Position numbers and translations under genes: made by a program. Shown here one piece after another: positions 5,835 through 40,710 of a stretch of DNA of 64,000 nucleotides; the stretch's first letter is position 1, and each line of letters begins with the position of its first letter. Origin of the DNA: an uncultured Chloroflexia bacterium (GTDB lineage Bacteria; Chloroflexota; Anaerolineae; JAAEKA01); contig CAVPPH010000010.1 in NCBI GenBank assembly GCA_963707275.1, forward strand, positions 44,764 through 108,763, given 5' to 3'. The notes beneath the pieces were generated by a model that worked only from the letters and a program-made list of their open reading frames with translations, made no database searches and was not told where the DNA came from.

Positions 5835-8504
5835 TCAGGTGCTGCTTGTTCCTCGACGCGCAGCACTTCCTCCAGGATCGAGACCGCCTCCTCTGATCAC
5901 CTGTTCGAATGCGAAGTTCGCGCCCTTCCGTCCACGCAGCATCAAAGCGCTCGACACCCAGGTGGGTGCGGGCGACTGTCGACGAGGCGATTGTAGTCGT
6001 TTCGCTGGAAGGGCATCAGAGCGATAATCTGGCATGTCCGCAGCCTCGATCATGCCTAACAGCTTGGCGGCCAACTCGTGTCGCTCCAAGGCTTCGGCCA
6101 GAGCAGCCAGACCAAGGCCCCAGTCACACCAATCTGTTCTGTCATACCTCACTCCAGGCAGGCCTACTCGTACAACCGACTGCGCCAGCGTAGTCACCTT
6201 CTGACCTGCGCCAGTATCCCCAGAAGCAGGTAGCAATCACAGAGTTGGCGTATTGCCAATAGTAGTTGTTTCCCTTGAGCATGCTATGACCTCATCCAGA
6301 AAGGCATGGGCAGCCGGGAAGTCCCCTGGCGCGTCGCAATCTCTGCCAAATCAACAAGGGTGCTCATGTCAGTGCCTCATCCTTCCGTGTTGCCGCTCAA
6401 TCGACAATGCCTGCTCGTAATAGCGATCGTGCCTCATCAAGGTCACCTTCAGCGTACGCGATGGCCCCCAGATCTTGTAGCGGCCATGGAAACCTGAAGC
6501 CTGCCTGCTGTGCGATGGTGAGCGCTTTCCTCGCTCAGCGCTCGTGCCGCGCGAAAGGCTTCCCGTATGACATGCGATTTCGGCCAGGAATGCACAGAGA
6601 GATAAGGAAATACCGTCGGGGTCGTCCAGCTTTCTGATAGATTGAGAGCGAGCTTGTTCAAGATATTGGACAGCTATACTCTGATCATATCGGCCGTACC
6701 AAGTGAATTTGTCCCAGGCCATAGCAGGGCATCAGCCTCCCCCTTTTCGTATTCCAGTTCCTGGCTGAGAACAAGGCTCTCTTCAGCATAGGCCTGAGCT
6801 TATCGCATTCATTGCTACACGAGCATGAGGATTGCCTGCCTCACGCAGAGCCTTCGCTCGGGGAATCGTATGGGCTGAGGCGTCAGGCAAGGCGAGAACT
6901 TCTTCTATCAAACGCATGCCTTCCGCATATGGACCTCGTTGGCCAAACCAGCGCAAGATAGGGCTGCGGTCAGCAACAACGCGGCCTGAACGTCAGTTCC
7001 ATCGCCCAGGCCAGTGCAGCGCGCACGTTGTGGATTTCGTCGTCGACGAAGTGGCGTACCTGCCAGAAGCCGGAGTCTAGGTCCAGAATGTTCGGCTTTC
7101 TCGACAAGTCGGAGAAGCAACTTACATGCCGTGCGCGTAACACCTCTTCTTGGCTGGCTCGAATTCATCCGTTCCAACCCGTACTCGCGCACCGTCTCGA
7201 GCATGACGTAGCGCGGATCACCGTACATGCCAGTTTCACGGTGCAACAGGCTCTTGTCCAGCAACGAACCGATGCCGTCGAGCACCTGGGCGGCGAGAGG
7301 GGGAGCGGGAGCGGGGAGAGAGGGTTTCTCCGCACAGCAGTTCGGCCGCTTCCAGCGTGAAGCCGCCGACAAAGACGGACAGGTACGTGAACAGCGCCTG
7401 CTCGACCGGCGAGAGCAGGTCATAGCTCCAGCCGATGGCGCCGCGCAGGGTCTTCTGGCGGGCGGAGACGTCGCGCAGGCCGTCGGTCGAGAGCAGCCAC
7501 GGGCCGTGCAGGCGCGCCAGCAACTCGTTCGGCGGCAGCAGCTTGACCCGCGCCGCGACCAGCTCGATGGCCAGCGGCAGGCCGTCCAGCCGGCGGCACA
7601 GCTCGGCCACGGCGGCGGCGTTGCCGTCGTCGACGGCGAAGTCGGGCAGCACCGCCTCGGCGCGGTCGGCGAAGAGGGCCACCGACGGGTAGCGCAGCAT
7701 GTCCTGGGCGGTCACCGCGCTCGGCGGCCGACGCAGCCAGCCGGCAGCGCCAGCGGCTGGACGTGGATCTGCCGTTCGCCGCGCACCCGCAGCGGCTGGC
7801 GGCTGGTCACCAGCACGTGCAGCCACGGACAGCGGCGCAGCAGGTCGTCCACCAGCGGCGCGGCGGCCACGATCTGCTCGAAGTTGTCCAGCACCAGGAG
7901 CAGGTGCTTCTCCTCCAGCCAGGCGCGGCAGTTGCAGCTCCGGCGGGTTGGGGCCGCCCATCTGCAAGCCCAGCGTCTGCGCGATGGCCGCTGCCACTTG
8001 GGCGGGGTCGCTGACCGGCGCCAGGCGCACGAAGAAGACGCCGTCGTCGAACTGTTCCAGCACGTCCTCGGCCACGGCCAGGGAAAGCCGCGTCTTGCCG
8101 ACGCCGGGCGGGCCGAGGAGGGTGACCAGCCGCGCGCCGTCGCTCAACAGCCGCCGTCGCACCACGGTGATGTCGTGGGCGCGGCCGATGAGCGGCGTGA
8201 GTTGGGCGGGCAGGTTGTTGGGGCGCTGTGGACGGAGGAGGCGCGCGGTGGTGGTGAAGTCCTCGACCGTGCCGCGCGCCAGGGCGATCAGGTCGGGTAG
8301 GTCGGCGTCGTCTGCGCCGAGCGCCTGCGCCAGGGACGTGACCAGCGGCGCGGAGGGCTGCAGGTCGCCGCTTTCGATCTTGCGCAGCGTGACCTCGGCG
8401 CAGCCTGCCTGCTGCGCCAGCGCTTTCTGTGTCAGCCCCAGCGCCTTGCGCCGCTGTTTGAGCCAATGACCGAAGTCGCCTGTCCTGGCAACCCTGTCTG
8501 CCAT
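5835..8504 (-). pseudogene. STAND-type regulator copy 2 (tandem to copy 1): HTH_XRE + NB-ARC + degraded TPR; many frameshifts/stops
   Basis: ORFs 7236-8504, 7712-7894, 6908-7423, 6369-6722, 5835-6236 (minus) match successive segments of 16180-18789 protein. Confidence 0.7.
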
Positions 8505-30829: not shown

Positions 30830-32107
30830 ATGACTGAGACCAACCTCAATATCTTGGGCCAGCGCGCCAGGGCTGCCAGCCGGCTGCTGGGTCGGGCTTC
30901 GACGGCTCAGAAGAACGCCGCCTTGCACGCCATTGCCGGCGGGCTAGAACGCAACGCGGCCCAGATTCTGGCCGCCAACGCGTTGGACGTGGCCGACGCG
31001 CAGGCGGCCGGCTTGTCGCCCGCGCTGGTGGACCGCCTGCTGCTGACCGATAAGCGGCTGGCCGGCATGGCCGCCGACACCCGCAGCGTCGCCGTGCTGC
31101 CCGATCCGGTTGGCGAGGAATATGACGGCCAACTGCGGCCCAACGGTCTGCGCATCGCGCGCCGGCGGACGCCGCTGGGTGTGCTGGGCGTGATCTACGA
31201 GGCGCGGCCCAACGTTACTATCGACATCGCCGCGTTGAGCCTCAAGACCGGCAACGCGGCCATTCTGCGCGGCGGCAAGGAAACGCTGCGCAGCAACCTG
31301 GCGCTGGTGGACGTGATCCAGACGGCGCTGGAGCAAGCGGGACTGCCGGGCGACAGCATCCTCTACATCGACAGCCCCGACCGCGCGCTGGTCACAGAGC
31401 TGCTGCGGCTGGATGCATACGTGGACATGATCATCCCGCGCGGCGGTAACGCGCTGCACAAGCTGTGCCGCGAGCAGGCCACGATCCCGGTCATGACCGG
31501 CGGCATCGGCATCTGCCACCTGTTTGTCGACGCGTCGGCCGACCAGACCAAGGCGGTCGAGATCATCCACAACGCCAAGACGCAGCGCCCGACCGTCTGC
31601 AACTCGCTGGACACCGTGCTGGTACACCGCGATGTCGCGGCCGATTTCCTGCCACGCATGGCGGCGCGGCTGGCCGGCGATGCGGTCGAGCTCCGGGCTG
31701 ATCCGATGTCGTACCTGATCCTGGAGCGGTCAGGCGAGGGCAGCGACTGGAAGGTGGAGCCGGCCGGGCCGGATGACTTCGACCAGGAATGGCTGAGCCT
31801 GATTCTGGGCGTCAAAGTGGTGGGTGGGCTGGACGAGGCCATCGACCACATCGCCGCCCACAGCACCGCGCATTCCGACGGCATCCTGACCGAGAGCTAT
31901 AGCCACGCCCAGCGCTTTGTCAACGAGGTCGACTCGGCGGCGGTCTTTGTCAATGCCAGCACCCGCTTCAACGACGGCGGCCAGCTTGGCCTGGGCGCAG
32001 AGGTGGCCGTTAGCACGCAGAAGTTGCACGCCCGCGGGCCGATGGGATTGCAGGAGCTGACGACGTATAAGTGGGTGGTGTTTGGTGAAGGGCAAGTACG
32101 GGAGTGA
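30830..32107 (+). CDS. proA: Gamma-glutamyl phosphate reductase
   Basis: Full-length ALDH-fold ProA pattern ([10 protein letters not shown], catalytic Cys in TVCNSLDT). Confidence 0.85.
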
Positions 32108-32299
32108 AACGTAATGCGTGATACGTACTGCGTAGCTTGTGGGTGGTTTGTCCAGTTGCCAGGCTCACCGATGGTGAAGAAGCATTGGCCCACAGATAGA
32201 AGGAGACGCAGATAGCCTGCGGCGCATTTCGTTACGCAACTCGCAAATCGCAATACGTAATTCGCAATACGTAACACGGAATACGCAATACGAGTTGAC

Positions 32300-34901: not shown

Positions 34902-35393
34902 TTACGACTGTTCGCGGAGGATTCGTAGCGCTGTCTCGACCGCCCCTGCGGCCGTGGCGGCGTGATGGATTGGCAATGGCTGGCCGCTGCCGTCAACTGC
35001 CTGCCAGGTGTTGATGCCGACCACCGGGCGTCCGAATTTACAGGCGAACGCGATCTCCGACAGCGTGCCATACTCGCCGCCAACCGCGATGACGGCCTGG
35101 GCCGTGCGCATCAGCACGGTATTGCGCGCCTCGCCCAGCCCGGTGACAACCGGCAGCGCCACCCACGGATTGGCATCGCGGGCGTCTTCACCCGGCAGGA
35201 TGCCGACCACAAGTCCGCCAGCTTGCGCCGCGCCACGGCTGGCTGCTTCCATCACCCCGCCGCGCCCGCCGGTCAGCAACACCGCGCCGGCCGATGCCAG
35301 CAGCCGACCCACCTCCTCCGCGATGGTTGCCTCCGTTTCGCTGCACGCCCCGCCGCCGATAACGGCCACCCGCGGCCCGATTGTGACCCTCAT
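34902..35393 (-). CDS. TIGR00725/LOG-family Rossmann-fold protein
   Basis: VAVIGGG...GLVVGILP...PVVTGLGEARN...AVIAVGGEYGTLSE pattern. Confidence 0.65.
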   Translation of the reverse strand: MRVTIGPRVAVIGGGACSETEATIAEEVGRLLASAGAVLLTGGRGGVMEAASRGAAQAGGLVVGILPGEDARDANPWVALPVVTGLGEARNTVLMRTAQAVIAVGGEYGTLSEIAFACKFGRPVVGINTWQAVDGSGQPLPIHHAATAAGAVETALRILREQS

Positions 35394-35983
35394 TCGTCAG
35401 TTCCGCTCAGCCTGGCTCGCGCCAGAGCCGTATGGACTGCGCCACCGGGACGCAGGTCGCTTTGAAACAGGACCACCTCTGCAATAGGTACGGTTCCCAG
35501 CAATCCCACCTCGATTTGAGCAAGCGCGGCAGCCAACTTCTCCCGATCGCCGCTCGAAATATTCTTGTTGACCCGACCTAGCGTCAAGTGTGGCGAGAAG
35601 CGACGCTTTTCCTTTTCATAGTCCAGCCGCGTTAGCTGCAGGTCAACCGCGCGCTGCAAACCGGCCAGCGCCTTCGGCGCGTCCGGCACGCCAACCCATA
35701 GCACGCTGGCGCGCCGCGGGTTAGGAAAGCAGCCGAAGCCCGCGACGGTTAAGCTGAAAGGCGCAAAACCGCCTGCCGCCGTGGCCATCGCCTGCGCGAT
35801 GGGATCGACCCGGTCAGCCGGTGTGTCCCCCAGAAATTTCAACGTCAGGTGAATGCCGTCAGGATTCGTCCAGCGGACTGCCTTCGGCGGCACGACCCGA
35901 CGCAAATCCGCCTGGACGCTGGCCAGAGCCGTGCGCACGTCAGCAGTCAGTTCAATGGCGATAAACAGACGAAGGGACTGCAT
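35390..35983 (-). CDS. thpR: RNA 2',3'-cyclic phosphodiesterase (2H phosphoesterase)
   Basis: Two H-x-T-x motifs: IHLTLKFLG and PHLTLGRV. Confidence 0.8.
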   Translation of the reverse strand: MQSLRLFIAIELTADVRTALASVQADLRRVVPPKAVRWTNPDGIHLTLKFLGDTPADRVDPIAQAMATAAGGFAPFSLTVAGFGCFPNPRRASVLWVGVPDAPKALAGLQRAVDLQLTRLDYEKEKRRFSPHLTLGRVNKNISSGDREKLAAALAQIEVGLLGTVPIAEVVLFQSDLRPGGAVHTALARARLSGTDE

Positions 35984-36009: not shown

Positions 36010-37221
36010 CTAGGGTTGCCAGACAGGTGAACCGTCACGGAACGGATTGTTTGTCACGTTCTGTTCACTTGTCCCGTCTACCTTCATCACGTAGATATCA
36101 CTCTGGCGGCCATCGTAGTCTACATAGGCGATTCTGGAGCCGTCCGGCGACCAAACGGCGTTTCCCCTCCAGTTTGGCGAAGGTGCGTTCAGGTGAGTCA
36201 GTCCGGAACCGTCGGCATTCATAAGAGCAATGCTTGTAAGAGTATGGCTGCTGCTGAAAGCCGTAAAAGCGATTTGGTCTCCATCTGGCGACCATGCCGG
36301 AAAATCATCCCAACCCAGTCGATGCGTGAGATTCTCTAGCCCGGTTCCATCGGCATTCATGAGACAGATCTCAAAGTCGTCATTGACAAGCGCAACAAAG
36401 ACGATCTTGGTTCCATCTGGCGACCAGGCACTACTGTGGGCTGACACGTAAGCAAAAGGCAGTTCCGCCGTAAGATTGGTGAGTTCACTCCCGTCCGTCT
36501 TAACAACATAGACATAGCTGGCGCTGTCCTGGTAAGAGGAATAGGCCAGTTGGGTACTGTCAGGTGACCAACTGGGCACAGAATTACATGCCGAACCGGT
36601 CGTTAGTCTGGTCAGGGCGGTGCCATCAGCGTTTATGACATAAACATCGCAAACGTCGCCTCCATAGATAAGATCCAAGGCGAGTTTGGTTCCGTCGGGT
36701 GACCATACCAATGTGCCTCCCCATCCTAACCCACCCCTAAGCAGCGTCAGACCTTGGCCTTCAGCTGTCGCAAGGTAGATTGCATAGTCGCGCGTGTCAT
36801 AGTTGTAGGAGGTAAAAGCTACCTTGGTTCCGTCTGGAGACCAGGTAGGATGCAGATCCAGAGCATTAGGGTTATTAGAGAGGTTTGCCAAACCCGTTCC
36901 GTCGACGCGAACGGTGTATATATCCTCGTTGCGATACTGAGGACTGGGACGGTCCGAAACGAAAGCCAGTCGCCTTACAGAAGGTTGCGAGTTTACCACC
37001 GGCATCCACACTGTGAAGACGAAAGTATCCGAGATTGCCGGCCTGGCATTGGAGGAAACTCGAGCACCAGCTTCAGGCAGTTCTTGAAGCAAATTGAAAC
37101 CGCGACGTCCGTCAGACAAGGCACTTCCACCGACGAAAAGATACAGCGCCAGCAGCAAACCAACCGAGAACACGAATGGGCCAATCAATTTGGGACCTGG
37201 TCGAACATGCTGATCTTGCAT
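36010..37221 (-). CDS. TolB-like beta-propeller (PD40/WD40-like repeats) protein with N-terminal TM; lower GC than flanks
   Basis: Repeated WSPDG(T/S)K(L/I/V)AF...IY.(M/I)NADG motifs; local GC ~50% vs ~68%. Confidence 0.7.
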   Translation of the reverse strand: MQDQHVRPGPKLIGPFVFSVGLLLALYLFVGGSALSDGRRGFNLLQELPEAGARVSSNARPAISDTFVFTVWMPVVNSQPSVRRLAFVSDRPSPQYRNEDIYTVRVDGTGLANLSNNPNALDLHPTWSPDGTKVAFTSYNYDTRDYAIYLATAEGQGLTLLRGGLGWGGTLVWSPDGTKLALDLIYGGDVCDVYVINADGTALTRLTTGSACNSVPSWSPDSTQLAYSSYQDSASYVYVVKTDGSELTNLTAELPFAYVSAHSSAWSPDGTKIVFVALVNDDFEICLMNADGTGLENLTHRLGWDDFPAWSPDGDQIAFTAFSSSHTLTSIALMNADGSGLTHLNAPSPNWRGNAVWSPDGSRIAYVDYDGRQSDIYVMKVDGTSEQNVTNNPFRDGSPVWQP

Positions 37222-37407: not shown

Positions 37408-38736
37408 TCATGCGTATCGACTCACATCCGCTCTGGGAAAGGGCACCCGCTGGAACTCGTGCAGCCGCGTGCAACCGTCGGACTGATCCCACGGGATGGT
37501 CGCGTCCAGAGCCATCTTGGCGCTGCGGCTTTTCTGGCCGGGAACGTGGGTCGCCGACGGGTCCAGCGATGATGAAGGTTGGTCCTCCCACAGCATCAGA
37601 TCGCGGTCGGCCTGGAAGCGCGTCGCAATCGCCCACTCCACGTCGTGCGGGTCGTAGAGGTCGATGTCGTCGTCCACCACCACGACATGCTTCAGCGATC
37701 CGTGGCCTTGGAATGCTGCTTCAGCCGCCTTGCGCCCATCGTCAGCGTGCTGCTTGTCGATCTGCACCACAGCATGTAGCCACGACGCGCCGCCCGGTGT
37801 GATGCTGACGTTGCGGCAGGTGCAGACGGCGTTGACCGCGGCATAGATGCTCGGCTCGCGTGGCATGCCCATCAGCAACTTGTGCTCCAGCATTCCCGGC
37901 AGCAGGGCGTGGTAAATGGCGTCGCGGCGGTGGGTGATGCAGTCGATCTCGATCACCGGCTGCTGACGCACGATGTCCCAGGTCTCGGTCAGATCGACAA
38001 ACGGCCCTTCGGCCACGGTGCGATGCGTGATCCGCCCTTCCAGCACGAACTCGGCCTCGGCCGGCACATGCAGGTCGTTAGTAAGACACTGGACCACCGG
38101 CGTTGGCGCCAGCGCGTTGGCGATGGACAGCTCGTCTACACCGGGCGGCGGCGCCATGCTGGCCGCCAGAAGAACGTGCAGCGGCAGGCCGATGCAGATG
38201 GCAACCGGCAGATCGCCGGGCGTCTTCATGCGCGCGCTGTCAGTGCCGCGCCGCTCGACGATTCTTGCGGCGAGGTGGGTCGCGTCCAGCCGCAGGCAGC
38301 GGTGAAAACTGACGTTGGGCCCGCTGTCGGGGTCGTTGACGATGGCGATGGCAGCCGTCGCATACGGTCCGGCGTCGTCCGTGTAGTGTGTCAGGAAAGG
38401 GATGCGTCGCAGGTCCGGCGGCGACATCACCACTTGCTGACAAGGCGCGTCGGAGCCAGCGACCAGCGGCGGCGGCTGTGGAGCTGCGTAGGCGTCAGCG
38501 AGTCGAAAGACCAATTCATCGACCTGACAACCCAGCGCCAGCGCGAAATAGCGCCGATCCGAGCACTGGCCCGACAGCACCCGAAACTCGCTGCCCGCCA
38601 CGTCGTTGAACAGCACCGGCCGCCCGTCCAGCGCCGCAATCACCGGCGCCATCTCCAGCCGCGGATTGACTGCCTTGTCGATCTCTGCCAGAAAGCCCAG
38701 CGTCTGAGATTGGTTGATGAACTCACGTAGTGTCAT
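37408..38736 (-). CDS. UbiD-family (prFMN-dependent) decarboxylase
   Basis: 442-aa ORF with UbiD-family conservation throughout. Confidence 0.8.
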   Translation of the reverse strand: MTLREFINQSQTLGFLAEIDKAVNPRLEMAPVIAALDGRPVLFNDVAGSEFRVLSGQCSDRRYFALALGCQVDELVFRLADAYAAPQPPPLVAGSDAPCQQVVMSPPDLRRIPFLTHYTDDAGPYATAAIAIVNDPDSGPNVSFHRCLRLDATHLAARIVERRGTDSARMKTPGDLPVAICIGLPLHVLLAASMAPPPGVDELSIANALAPTPVVQCLTNDLHVPAEAEFVLEGRITHRTVAEGPFVDLTETWDIVRQQPVIEIDCITHRRDAIYHALLPGMLEHKLLMGMPREPSIYAAVNAVCTCRNVSITPGGASWLHAVVQIDKQHADDGRKAAEAAFQGHGSLKHVVVVDDDIDLYDPHDVEWAIATRFQADRDLMLWEDQPSSSLDPSATHVPGQKSRSAKMALDATIPWDQSDGCTRLHEFQRVPFPRADVSRYA

Positions 38737-38753
38737 GAAGTACCTCGGATGAT

Positions 38754-39774
38754 TGACTCACAGATGGAAAGAAACACAGATGGCTTTCAATGGGTTGTCG
38801 AGTTAGTCGGGTGAGATGCCGTAGATTTGAAGCTGGTTCTTGCCGAAGTTTACAACCACACCCAGCCGCAAGCACAGGTTATTCATGAACGTCTTGGTGC
38901 GGGCGAACTCGTATTTGGGCGGAAACAAGGTCAGTGCACCGACATTGACCAGTACTGTGTCAGCAACCAGCAGGTGATCACCGATGTGCTGGCTCAGCGG
39001 CTCACCATGCAGGCTCGCTTGAAGCTGAACGTCCGAACGACAGGGAATCCCGTTGCATTCCAGTTCCACAGCAAGTGCTCGCCTGAAAGTAGTGGCTGGA
39101 TATCCCAGCTCATGTTGCTGGTAGACCTGAAGAATGCTGTCTCGCACTCTGACAAGAATCGTTCGGTCCCACCTGTTGTGCACTGGTTTGATCTCGTCAT
39201 AGTGCTCAAAAACATCAGGTTCTGGCTCTTGCCACACCACACGCTTGATCTCAGCACTTAACGGCCCAAAATTGACGAGCAATCCGAGCTTCTTTTGCCA
39301 CAGCTTCAGATAACGAATGATCTGGGCAAAGTGTGCTGGAGCAAAGCTGGTAAACGGCAGGACCTTGAGTTCGAGTATGAGGAGGTCCCACAGGATGAGG
39401 TCGCATTCGAACACATCAACGTCAACACCTCGATGCCTTAATGCAAGCCGAGGCTTGGACACGTATGGAATGCTTCTCGCCTCTACCAGGCGAATCAACC
39501 CCTGATGATAGGCCTCTTCGGGCCAACCGATCTTCAATGCGTTATGGGTGTCGAATATCAGCCCTCGCGCCTCGTAGCTCAACTTATTCAGATGCTCATC
39601 GCGCATGGCCCCTCCAAAAACCCATCTGCGAGTCACCTCCGCCTCCAACCGGCCAACGACACGCCCCCTCCAAAAACTCATCTGTGTTTCTTTCCATCTG
39701 TGAGTTAACTCCGCCTCGATCCGGCCAACGACACTACCAAAAGGAAATCAGTGTTTCTTTCCATCTGTGAGTCA
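38754..39774 (-). mobile_element. ~1-kb low-GC insertion bounded by 24-bp inverted repeats, carrying a tandem GxxExxY/PD-(D/E)xK-like gene
   Basis: TGACTCACAGATGGAAAGAAACAC at 38754-38777; reverse complements GTGTTTCTTTCCATCTGTGAGT(T/C)A at 39684-39707 and 39751-39774; three degenerate ~65-bp tandem units at right end; GC drop. Confidence 0.55.
38803..39681 (-). CDS. Tandem GxxExxY-family (PD-(D/E)xK nuclease-like fold) protein
   Basis: Two ~140-aa halves; first with GWPEEAY (GxxExxY) and LLVNFG, second with GYPATTF and VVVNFG. Confidence 0.6.
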   Translation of the reverse strand: MSFWRGRVVGRLEAEVTRRWVFGGAMRDEHLNKLSYEARGLIFDTHNALKIGWPEEAYHQGLIRLVEARSIPYVSKPRLALRHRGVDVDVFECDLILWDLLILELKVLPFTSFAPAHFAQIIRYLKLWQKKLGLLVNFGPLSAEIKRVVWQEPEPDVFEHYDEIKPVHNRWDRTILVRVRDSILQVYQQHELGYPATTFRRALAVELECNGIPCRSDVQLQASLHGEPLSQHIGDHLLVADTVLVNVGALTLFPPKYEFARTKTFMNNLCLRLGVVVNFGKNQLQIYGISPD

Positions 39775-40710
39775 AATCCGCCTCGGCGCAACGACCGTCA
39801 CAACGACTCTGCGCGCGCCAGCAGCCGACAAAGCTGCCACCAGCGGCTCGGCCTCGTCGTCGCGCGCCAGCGCGATCATGTTACCGCCGCGGCCACCGCC
39901 GCTGAGCTTGGCACCCAGCGCGCCGGCTTCTCGCGCCGTGATGCACAGCCGGTCCAGCTCCGGGCTGGAAACGTTCATCTGCTGCAACAGCGCGTGGTTC
40001 TCGTCCATCAAACGGCCCAGCGCGCCGGTGTCGCCGATCTGGATCGCGTCACGGGCTGCCACCACGATATGGCCCACAGCGTCAAACAACGCCTCGTAAC
40101 GCGCCGGCTCAGCCTGCCAGCCGCGGCGCACATCGCCCACAGTGACGCTGGTCGGGCTGGCAATGCCGGTGTCGCCGATCACCAGCGTGACGGGCCGGGC
40201 GACGGCGAACGGCTCCGGCGGCTGGCCGCGCACGAACCAGACCGGCTGCTCGTAAGCCACCACGGTGTTGTCGATGCCGCTGGGCGTGCCGTGAAACAGT
40301 CGCTCACTCTCGAACACCAGCGCCGATATCTCTGAGGCGGTCAGGAACCGGCCCGCGGCAGCAGCGATAGCGCGCACGATCGCGGTGGCCGCCGCCGCGC
40401 CGCTGCCCAGCCCGCTGCTAACCGGAATCGTGCTGCGCAGGATGATATGCCAGTCCGGCGTGGCAATTTCCAGGGCATCCAACGTCGTTCGCGTCACAAG
40501 CGCCAGCGGCTGCATGGTCGGCTCGCCGGTCACCGGCACGGTCTGACCGATGTCGTGCAAATCCAGCACGCAGCCGCTGCCGGGCGTCCCTGGCGTGACT
40601 GTCGCCGTCGCCGTAAGCTGGCTGACCGGCGCAGCGATAGCCGGTCGCCCGTAGACCACCGCGTGCTCGCCGAAGAGAATGATCTTGCCCGGTGCGCTGC
40701 CAGTCTTCAT
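39772..40710 (-). CDS. mvk: Mevalonate kinase (GHMP kinase)
   Basis: GKIILFGEHAVVYG N-terminus; PVSSGLGSGAAAA ATP motif; KLSGGGRGG. Confidence 0.8.
   Translation of the reverse strand: MKTGSAPGKIILFGEHAVVYGRPAIAAPVSQLTATATVTPGTPGSGCVLDLHDIGQTVPVTGEPTMQPLALVTRTTLDALEIATPDWHIILRSTIPVSSGLGSGAAAATAIVRAIAAAAGRFLTASEISALVFESERLFHGTPSGIDNTVVAYEQPVWFVRGQPPEPFAVARPVTLVIGDTGIASPTSVTVGDVRRGWQAEPARYEALFDAVGHIVVAARDAIQIGDTGALGRLMDENHALLQQMNVSSPELDRLCITAREAGALGAKLSGGGRGGNMIALARDDEAEPLVAALSAAGARRVVVTVVAPRRI

Follow-up and report, generated by a model that had tools for sequence, protein, structure and literature searches.

The subject of this analysis is a small gene-and-repeat cassette located between a mevalonate kinase gene (mvk) and a gene of the UbiD family (ubiD) on a 64,000-nucleotide stretch of contig CAVPPH010000010.1, from an uncultured Chloroflexia bacterium. 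The whole stretch is called the window in the following. The genes at the locus all lie on the minus strand: mvk comes first, followed by a tandem GxxExxY open reading frame (ORF) and then by ubiD. The cassette occupies the entire gap between its two co-directional neighbours. Its guanine-plus-cytosine (GC) content is 0.50–0.55, compared with 0.63–0.72 in mvk and ubiD. A promoter and terminator scan of the cassette gave no promoter-like site and no convincing terminator, the one terminator-like match being fewer than shuffled sequences yield. Rfam returned no match for the region at permissive thresholds, and none in six related loci at gathering thresholds. The coordinates are collected in Table 1, and labels such as L001 denote the loci and contigs that were gathered for comparison with the window.

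Table 1. Features of the cassette and its flanking genes (window coordinates).
Feature	Position	Strand	Details
mvk, mevalonate kinase	39772-40710	-	upstream neighbour, same strand; TIGR00549 match
Array of three tandem units	39600-39812	-	67-72 nt each
Outer left arm, copy 1	39747-39775	-	gene strand reads TTGACTCACAGATGGAAAGAAACACTGAT; two 7-mer half-sites 16 nt apart
Left arm, copy 2	39674-39708	-	TTAACTCACAGATGGAAAGAAACACAGATGAGTTT; 91% complementary to the ubiD-side arm over 35 nt
Third, degenerate unit	39607-39673	-	truncated arm TGACTCGCAGATGG (39622-39635), then likely ribosome-binding site GGAGGGG (39609-39615)
Tandem GxxExxY / PDDEXK_3 gene	38803-39606	-	267 aa; PF13366/TIGR04256
Right arm, inverted copy	38753-38787	-	gene strand reads AAAGCCATCTGTGTTTCTTTCCATCTGTGAGTCAA
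UbiD-family decarboxylase	37408-38736	-	downstream neighbour, same strand; TIGR00148 and three UbiD Pfam domains

The cassette is bounded by inverted repeats, referred to here as arms. The 24-mer TGACTCACAGATGGAAAGAAACAC is found at 38754–38777 (+), and its reverse complement occurs exactly at 39751–39774 and with one mismatch at 39684–39707. No further copy with up to three mismatches is present in the window, and none appeared in 100 shuffles (0 expected), which confirms the 24-bp inverted repeats that a first-pass annotation, made from the sequence alone, had reported, the left one at a distance of 18 nt from the ubiD start (ATG at 38736). The same annotation was also right that the last three bases of the outer repeat supply the mvk stop codon (39772–39774, TGA); on the gene strand, they are among the first bases of the outer left arm. 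When the right arm is compared with the two full left arms, the repeats run on to 29–35 nt. The right arm starts 15 nt past the nuclease stop codon and its outer end is 16 nt ahead of the ubiD ATG. With its spacer spelled out, the arm core is CACAGAT-GGAAAGAAA-CACAGAT.

On the mvk side, the arms form part of the tandem array, in which every unit repeats the mvk 3′ end (GTG.CG.T.G..GG..(C/G)GAGGCGGA(G/T)(G/T)T(G/A)A) and continues with an arm and ca 20 nt. Three degenerate units of about 65 bp had been described initially; the number three stands, but the start-to-start spacing is 72 and 67 nt. The units are too diverged to be reported by Tandem Repeats Finder, and the arm of unit 3 is shorter by exactly one 16-nt period. 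They can be aligned over ca 85 nt, including the last ca 10 codons of mvk, which are themselves part of unit 1. Since the alignment takes in these codons, the units are local tandem duplications that followed the insertion, rather than repeated insertions. The tail of the window mvk product (VTVVAPRRI*) and its stop fall inside the repeated unit, whereas the tail at cassette-free sites (see below) is VTEV(S/G)*.

We now consider the protein encoded between the arms. The gene had originally been placed at 38803–39681 (292 aa), but that start lies inside arm 2, and the homologues support the shorter frame: every one of them is ca 267 aa long and begins at the equivalent of the ATG at 39606 (MRDEHL...), which is preceded by GGAGGGG. 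The assignment as a tandem GxxExxY gene is borne out by profile searches, in which PF13366 scores 120 bits against a cut-off of 22 and TIGR04256 124.8 bits against one of 35, both with matches to two stretches, PF13366 being the sole matching Pfam family. The invariant residues in an alignment of 32 homologues are all in the N-terminal domain (E31, Y33, H34, D69, K81 and Q95 in the window protein), which has the motifs GWPEEAYH, D69 and E79-L-K81, with E30 and E79 completing them. The C-terminal domain reads GYPATTF, has N221 and G223 in place of E and K, and looks catalytically dead. The AlphaFold2 model has a pLDDT of 94.8, and its best matches among solved folds, according to Foldseek, are Cas4 SSO0001 (4ic1, E 3e-4), lambda exonuclease, MGME1 and Hjc-type nucleases, with low sequence identity; a sequence search of the PDB with the nuclease matched no chain. 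Model and fold matches agree in the restriction-endonuclease-like alpha/beta fold of the PD-(D/E)xK superfamily. Given the double match of the hidden Markov models, the confinement of the catalytic residues to the N-terminal domain, and the fold, the protein is predicted to be a PD-(D/E)xK pseudo-dimer in which a single active site is live. The possible nuclease activity suggested by the first-pass annotation is thus upheld for the N-terminal domain but not for the C-terminal one, which has lost the catalytic residues.

The tandem subfamily comprises 177 clusters (50% identity) at E ≤ 1e-30, and the wider family ca 16,500 at E ≤ 1e-3. It had been remarked that GxxExxY proteins are poorly characterised, and indeed the searchable literature on GxxExxY, PDDEXK_3 and PF13366 holds only a few incidental mentions and a table entry that gives the function as 'Unknown'.

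The age of the cassette can be assessed from the mvk–ubiD junction in other genomes. No record was returned when the UbiD of the window was looked up by exact match. A scan of metagenome contigs with UbiD gave 80 loci, in 13 of which mvk is upstream. Eight of these junctions (L034, L037, L039, L041, L043, L049, L079 and L101, with UbiD 59–65% identical) are empty, with −4 to +8 nt from the mvk stop to the ubiD start and mvk ending in VTEV(S/G)*, which supports the initial proposal of an insertion between the two genes. In the other five, unrelated inserts or spacers with lengths from 47 to 679 nt separate the two genes, and the junction seems to receive inserts repeatedly. In L032 and L040, the inserts (574–679 nt) have small ORFs that by their appearance resemble a putative toxin–antitoxin pair, and that of L089 encodes a UbiX-like flavin prenyltransferase. 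The five closest UbiD relatives (L027–L031, 79–91% identical) have no mvk upstream of ubiD and can therefore not be used as empty sites. Directly upstream of ubiD in L028 (~1050–1340) there is a candidate PIN-domain (VapC-like) toxin, judged by eye from the raw sequence.

The same order of mvk, cassette and ubiD is found in L001 (GCA_020051655.1), with two left and two right arms. The window and L001 nucleases are 75% identical, with a ratio of nonsynonymous to synonymous substitution rates (dN/dS) of 0.14 and a dS of 1.19; the corresponding mvk products are 80% identical, with a dN/dS of 0.19. Because L001 carries an orthologous cassette with these values, the cassette predates the split between the two lineages, and it has been inherited vertically under purifying selection. 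At the mvk–ubiD site, it is present in the window and L001 and absent from the eight empty loci, all of which are distant relatives. The description of the element as selfish or mobile holds at the level of the family, which is found in many unrelated operons and several phyla, while the copy in the window is an old one.

A search for a target-site duplication, as had been recommended, gave no recognisable one at the window junctions, where the bases outside the arms belong to the extended inverted repeat or to the tandem duplication. Similarities involving CCGAGG and GGAGGTGA were considered as candidates and rejected, as they are part either of the extended inverted repeat, of ribosome-binding sites or of the mvk tail that has been duplicated.

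These results bear on the option that the cassette is a classical small transposon or insertion sequence, with the PD-(D/E)xK protein as the transposase and the 24–35-nt arms as terminal inverted repeats. Inverted repeats are indeed present at both ends, the insertion sites vary between lineages, and PD-(D/E)xK proteins act in some transposition systems, such as TnsA of Tn7. The ORF, however, has no DDE, HUH, serine or tyrosine transposase domain, with PF13366 as its only Pfam match, and only one of its domains is predicted to be catalytically competent. Furthermore, no target-site duplication is recognisable, the window has a single copy, the two Ca. Trichofilum copies differ in their arms, the orthologous copies are old and vertically inherited, and the arms are also found as hairpins and tandem arrays. 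This option is in our judgement very unlikely. Describing the cassette as bounded by terminal inverted repeats is thus correct as to their position, but they are units of a hairpin-repeat family and not classical transposon ends.

The gene-plus-arm anatomy recurs in homologous loci. In total, 74 homologues were gathered, and loci were drawn from assemblies and from the species genomes of GTDB. Their sources are Anaerolineae, Caldilineaceae, Ardenticatenaceae, Ca. Trichofilum, three Verrucomicrobiota, and one metagenome-assembled genome (MAG) each with the labels Cellvibrionaceae and Rhizobiaceae. In 22 of 24 homologous loci, the gene is preceded by left-type arms and followed by right-type ones. 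All follow one design, in which a 7-mer is followed by a purine-rich spacer (mean 83% purine) and by the 7-mer again, with a period of 15–17 nt, usually 16. The 7-mer is lineage-specific (CACAGAT, CACGGAT, CACTGAT, CGCGGAT, CTCGGAT or AACGGAT). For representative arms, one hand-picked per locus, the two half-sites of an arm are identical at 6.84 of 7 positions, compared to 5.65 of 7 between lineages, and no permutation out of 20,000 was as high (p < 5e-5). Hairpin pairing alone does not predict such identity within an arm; the covariation counts in favour of the cassette model proposed below.

The window and L001 arms are identical at 21 of 25 positions, compared to 23–25 of 25 within one genome, and all four L001 arms carry the same two substitutions relative to the window. 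As this identity is retained despite a dS above 1, and the two substitutions are common to the L001 arms, the arms are conserved, and those on the two sides of the gene evolve in concert. Their number and arrangement are variable: in L002 and L009 the gene lies between two complete hairpins, left-arm arrays reach six copies in L020 and three in L012, and the number of hairpin units differs among samples of one locus (L002, L003, L005).

The genomic setting is similarly constant in orientation and variable in content. The upstream neighbour is on the same strand as the nuclease gene in all 23 loci, and the upstream genes are unrelated to one another (a regulator, an amidotransferase, an ABC permease, an enolase-family enzyme, a cyclase, a flavoprotein, an acyl-CoA dehydrogenase and an MFS transporter), with no conserved functional partner gene among them. 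In L021–L023 the cassette is in one common context. Where genes were called or annotated, the outer arm edges directly adjoin the stop codon of the upstream gene and the start codon of the downstream one. In each of the 23 loci, the nuclease gene has a lower GC content than its flanks (by 11 points on average), and its GC content tracks that of the host. The GC drop recognised by the first-pass annotation is therefore genuine, but it is a trait of the family and no mark of recent transfer. Interrupted copies with intact arms, due to a stop codon or a frameshift, were seen in L018 (6043–6048), L025 (~6189–6345) and L026 (~6366–6453), the arms of L026 being identical despite the disrupted gene. 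These may be decaying copies or may reflect MAG sequencing errors.

This arrangement could also have a function at the RNA level. In a polycistronic mvk–cassette–ubiD transcript, the arms would pair as a ~30-bp stem that loops out the ORF, such that the mvk stop and the ubiD start are rejoined for translational coupling, or RNase III excises the insert as in the intervening sequences (IVS) of 23S rRNA; the nuclease would then be a passenger or act on RNA. The invariable co-directionality with the neighbours, the location of the arms at the gap edges next to the upstream stop and downstream start, and a cassette free of promoter-like or convincing terminator-like sites are all in line with this. 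So are the empty junctions, which overlap or are 3–8 nt apart as is typical of coupled genes, and the predicted fold of the whole transcript, in which arm 2 pairs with the right arm. The Coxiella IVS, which in the account cited is an ORF in an RNase III-processed stem, provides a precedent (PMC4990558). The mismatches between arms, on the other hand, have no sense-strand G-U bias, with 15 G-U against 21 A-C and 30 transversions in the local hairpins, and 11 G-U against 12 A-C and 17 transversions in the gene-spanning pairs. An RNA stem would also leave the covariation of half-sites within an arm unexplained, and the left-arm-only tandem arrays, as well as the solo hairpins and translated hypF hairpin described below, would be unaccounted for. 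Finally, the predicted folding of the upstream array by itself does not surpass that of shuffles (z = 0.31), and no Rfam family matches. We consider an insulating role of this kind unlikely.

Arms are also found away from the gene. With an arm profile, 12 arms at distances above 0.5 kb from the gene were detected in 262 kb of gene-bearing sequence (L014, L016, L023, L024 and the window), while 477 kb of control contigs gave none at the same score, their best match being below it. Under equal rates, this excess has p ~4e-6, with five genomes contributing. The solo copies fold as hairpins with stems of ~22–35 bp, and the relatives that have them are L014, L016 and L022–L024. One such hairpin, which belongs to the Verrucomicrobiota arm family, is situated in-frame within the hypF genes of L022 (2964–3033) and L023 (2936–3005), where it adds ~20 residues. 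It is thus present in two of three related genomes, the site in L021 (~2870–2900) holding (AAATCCG)3 instead. Repeats of SEIRNPKSEI type are seen elsewhere in the HypF proteins of L021–L023.

In the window itself, possible degenerate solo arms are found at 32163–32213 (+), CTCACCGATGGTGAAGAAGCATTGG followed by CCCACAGATAGAAGGAGACGCAGAT; they are intergenic and constitute a weak match (10.3 bits, E 0.32). On either side of them, within the intergenic stretch 32104–32297, there are inverted runs with a period of 7 nt (ACGTAAT/GCGTGAT..., CGCAATA/CGTAATT...), which resemble heptamer tandem repeats. The exact arm 21-mer has no match in the GTDB species genomes, a set that does not include the source genome.

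Another alternative is a free-standing homing endonuclease gene, which would cut cassette-free alleles or solo palindromes and be copied in by recombinational repair, with the arms as the split halves of its target. PD-(D/E)xK homing endonucleases exist, I-Ssp6803I being an example. Filled and empty mvk–ubiD junctions coexist, the gene is sporadic across unrelated operons and phyla, the solo hairpins resemble the same palindrome without the gene, and disrupted copies with intact arms (L018, L025, L026) are expected late in a homing cycle. The persistence of the gene under purifying selection (dN/dS 0.14, dS 1.19), however, exceeds the prediction of a classical homing cycle. In addition, L002, L009 and L110 carry whole hairpins upstream and downstream of the gene instead of split halves, and since the empty sites are in distant relatives only, a recent gain is undocumented. 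Like the classical transposon, homing is among the less likely explanations, and we regard it as rather improbable.

The analysis was extended to single-domain GxxExxY genes in cultured bacteria, using eight complete replicons from PLSDB records (L107–L114); with n=8, this extension is preliminary. The gene is co-directional with its annotated neighbours, namely radA and a FAD protein gene in Bacteroides finegoldii, ade and a guanylyltransferase gene in Bernardetia, and fabD and fabG in Sphingomonas parapaucimobilis, and the arms likewise abut the upstream stop and the downstream start where these are annotated. Strong flanking inverted repeats of iterated motifs are present in four of the eight, those of Bacteroides, Bernardetia, Gemmatirosa and Sphingomonas; the motifs are 3 x CAC(A/G)GAGGA, CACAGAGA-N9-CACAGAGA, 3-4 x CGCAGAGGA and 3 x CGCGA(A/G)G. 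As to the other four, Treponema has a short repeat with CACGGAT, two have direct-repeat flanks and one has no repeat. The Gemmatirosa hairpins are perfect 35-nt palindromes, found in Gemmatirosa kalamazoonensis at at least 40 and at least 39 places on two ~1-Mb replicons (NZ_CP007129.1 and NZ_CP007130.1), one of which carries the three GxxExxY matches. The Sphingomonas arm was found again in unannotated DNA of several other replicons of the same strain; the Bernardetia arm did not recur.

Taken together, these results lead us to propose that the region represents a cassette that persists as a selfish or semi-domesticated element, composed of a two-domain PD-(D/E)xK nuclease gene and its cognate palindromic repeat, in the manner of a REPIN/RAYT system. 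We would give this proposal an even chance. The pseudo-dimer would recognise the iterated half-sites, probably where the DNA is cruciform or is single-stranded and folded, and would nick or cut at the folded arms. Repair or copying of the cuts would then spread and homogenise the hairpins and occasionally move the whole cassette, resembling the way in which RAYT transposases maintain REP/REPIN populations (REP, repetitive extragenic palindrome). The nuclease gene would have no promoter of its own and would be expressed by read-through from the host operon. The interaction between nuclease and repeat is one that we infer. The selfish nuclease insertion envisaged by the first-pass annotation is in this sense partly supported: it is right in outline, and we recast it as an old, conserved module of a nuclease and its cognate repeat.

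It is important to point out that several observations weigh against this proposal. Binding and cutting of the arms by the protein are themselves inferred, the distant arms are drawn from five genomes only, and the arms in the covariation test were chosen by hand. The 64-kb window has one weak extra arm-like site, so that dispersal in its genome is unproven, and no target-site duplication was seen. A near-identical second copy of the cassette was found in none of the genomes, the two copies in Ca. Trichofilum being diverged and having different arms. A single PD-(D/E)xK active site cannot transpose by itself, and the concerted evolution of the arms could stem from gene conversion without any contribution of the protein.

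The association between gene and repeat appears to hold well beyond the window, and the searchable literature yielded no account of it. We tentatively suggest, while thinking it somewhat less probable than its opposite, that GxxExxY proteins (PF13366/TIGR04256) as a class are the cognate nucleases of unrecognised palindromic repeat elements, forming a second, independent REPIN/RAYT-like system with PD-(D/E)xK chemistry that extends from Bacteroidota to Chloroflexota. If so, each GxxExxY gene would sit within a palindrome of iterated CACRGA-type 7–9-mers that is read by the protein, and such palindromes would spread through the genome, between genes, within operons and even in-frame in genes.

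A widespread family of unknown function would in that case be given a concrete and testable role, with iterated CACRGAT arms as the predicted substrate. It would also suggest that the repeat-plus-enzyme lifestyle of REP/RAYT possibly evolved again with an unrelated enzyme, and that a selfish gene can be housed in essential operons (mvk–ubiD, and fabD–fabG in Sphingomonas) without breaking them. For annotation, it would account for the small ORFs of low GC content and the arrays of hairpins by which operons are interrupted, and the lineage-specific half-sites might yield programmable sequence-specific nucleases.

Some features of the surrounding genes should also be mentioned. A UbiD-family gene directly follows mvk in many Chloroflexota-like contigs (L034–L101), often with overlapping stop and start; we presume that the enzyme may have a role in a modified (archaeal-type) mevalonate pathway. 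Downstream of ubiD, the window has a low-GC (~52%) gene for a PD40/WD40-like beta-propeller protein (36010–37221, −), located before a LigT/2′-5′ RNA ligase-like gene (35390–35983, −). In L027, whose UbiD is 91% identical, a LigT-like gene that is 73% identical to that of the window follows 3 nt after ubiD. Because the two genes are so close there, the beta-propeller gene looks like another insertion in the same string of genes; it has no flanking inverted repeat.

We finally compare the cassette with known systems. Cas4 and RecB-like PD-(D/E)xK nucleases are the nearest solved folds and have the catalytic D...ExK arrangement in common with the window protein, which differs from them in having neither an Fe-S cluster motif nor a CRISPR context; the combination of a live and a dead domain in tandem is specific to the tandem GxxExxY subfamily. 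Integron attC sites are imperfect hairpins with R''/L''-L'/R' boxes, associated with a promoterless co-directional ORF. The cassette likewise combines such an ORF with an imperfect hairpin that has two short boxes per arm. In contrast to attC, its boxes are CACRGAT-like instead of GTTRRRY/RYYYAAC, and it is a single gene in ordinary operons with sites on both sides, as opposed to an array beside an integrase. No tyrosine recombinase is present among the neighbours examined, no integrase-specific search of the window having been made.

The 23S rRNA IVS of Coxiella with S23p is described in the cited account as a small selfish ORF in an RNase III-processed stem (PMC4990558). The likeness lies in an ORF that is bracketed by complementary arms and leaves the host transcription unit intact; the differences are that the cassette lies between protein-coding genes of an mRNA operon, belongs to another ORF family, and has no sense-strand wobble bias. 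The Rickettsia palindromic elements and prokaryotic miniature inverted-repeat transposable elements are, as the source presents them, short palindromes that can lie in-frame in protein genes (PMC10969869). The solo hairpin translated in-frame in hypF of L022 and L023 is of this kind, whereas the cassette palindrome encloses a nuclease gene and the Rickettsia elements have no known enzyme gene between their arms.

The closest parallel is provided by the REP/REPIN-RAYT systems ('REPtrons', TnpA_REP). In the accounts cited, these have a usually single-copy enzyme gene flanked by inverted palindromic repeats, and their repeats are dispersed, lineage-specific hairpin doublets that are mostly inherited vertically and persist for long times (PMC3116915, PMC5581495, PMC8266576, bioRxiv 10.1101/2022.05.22.493013). 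In the same way, the window has one copy of the cassette, with an orthologue in L001, and its gene is flanked by inverted arms, as in the 22 homologous loci; inheritance is vertical and the half-sites are lineage-specific. Solo hairpins are found in relatives (L014, L016, L022–L024) and at at least 79 places in Gemmatirosa, compared to one weak site in the 64 kb of the window, and dispersal is thus modest, or in the window genome unproven. The two systems also differ in that the cassette arms consist of an iterated 7-mer or 9-mer, and in that the cassette is located within operons and is always co-directional. RAYTs, moreover, are HUH/Y1 transposases of the IS200/IS605 type. Since the enzyme of the cassette is predicted to be a PD-(D/E)xK nuclease and not an HUH protein, we do not count the cassette as a member of the REPIN-RAYT family, but by analogy it may work in a similar manner.

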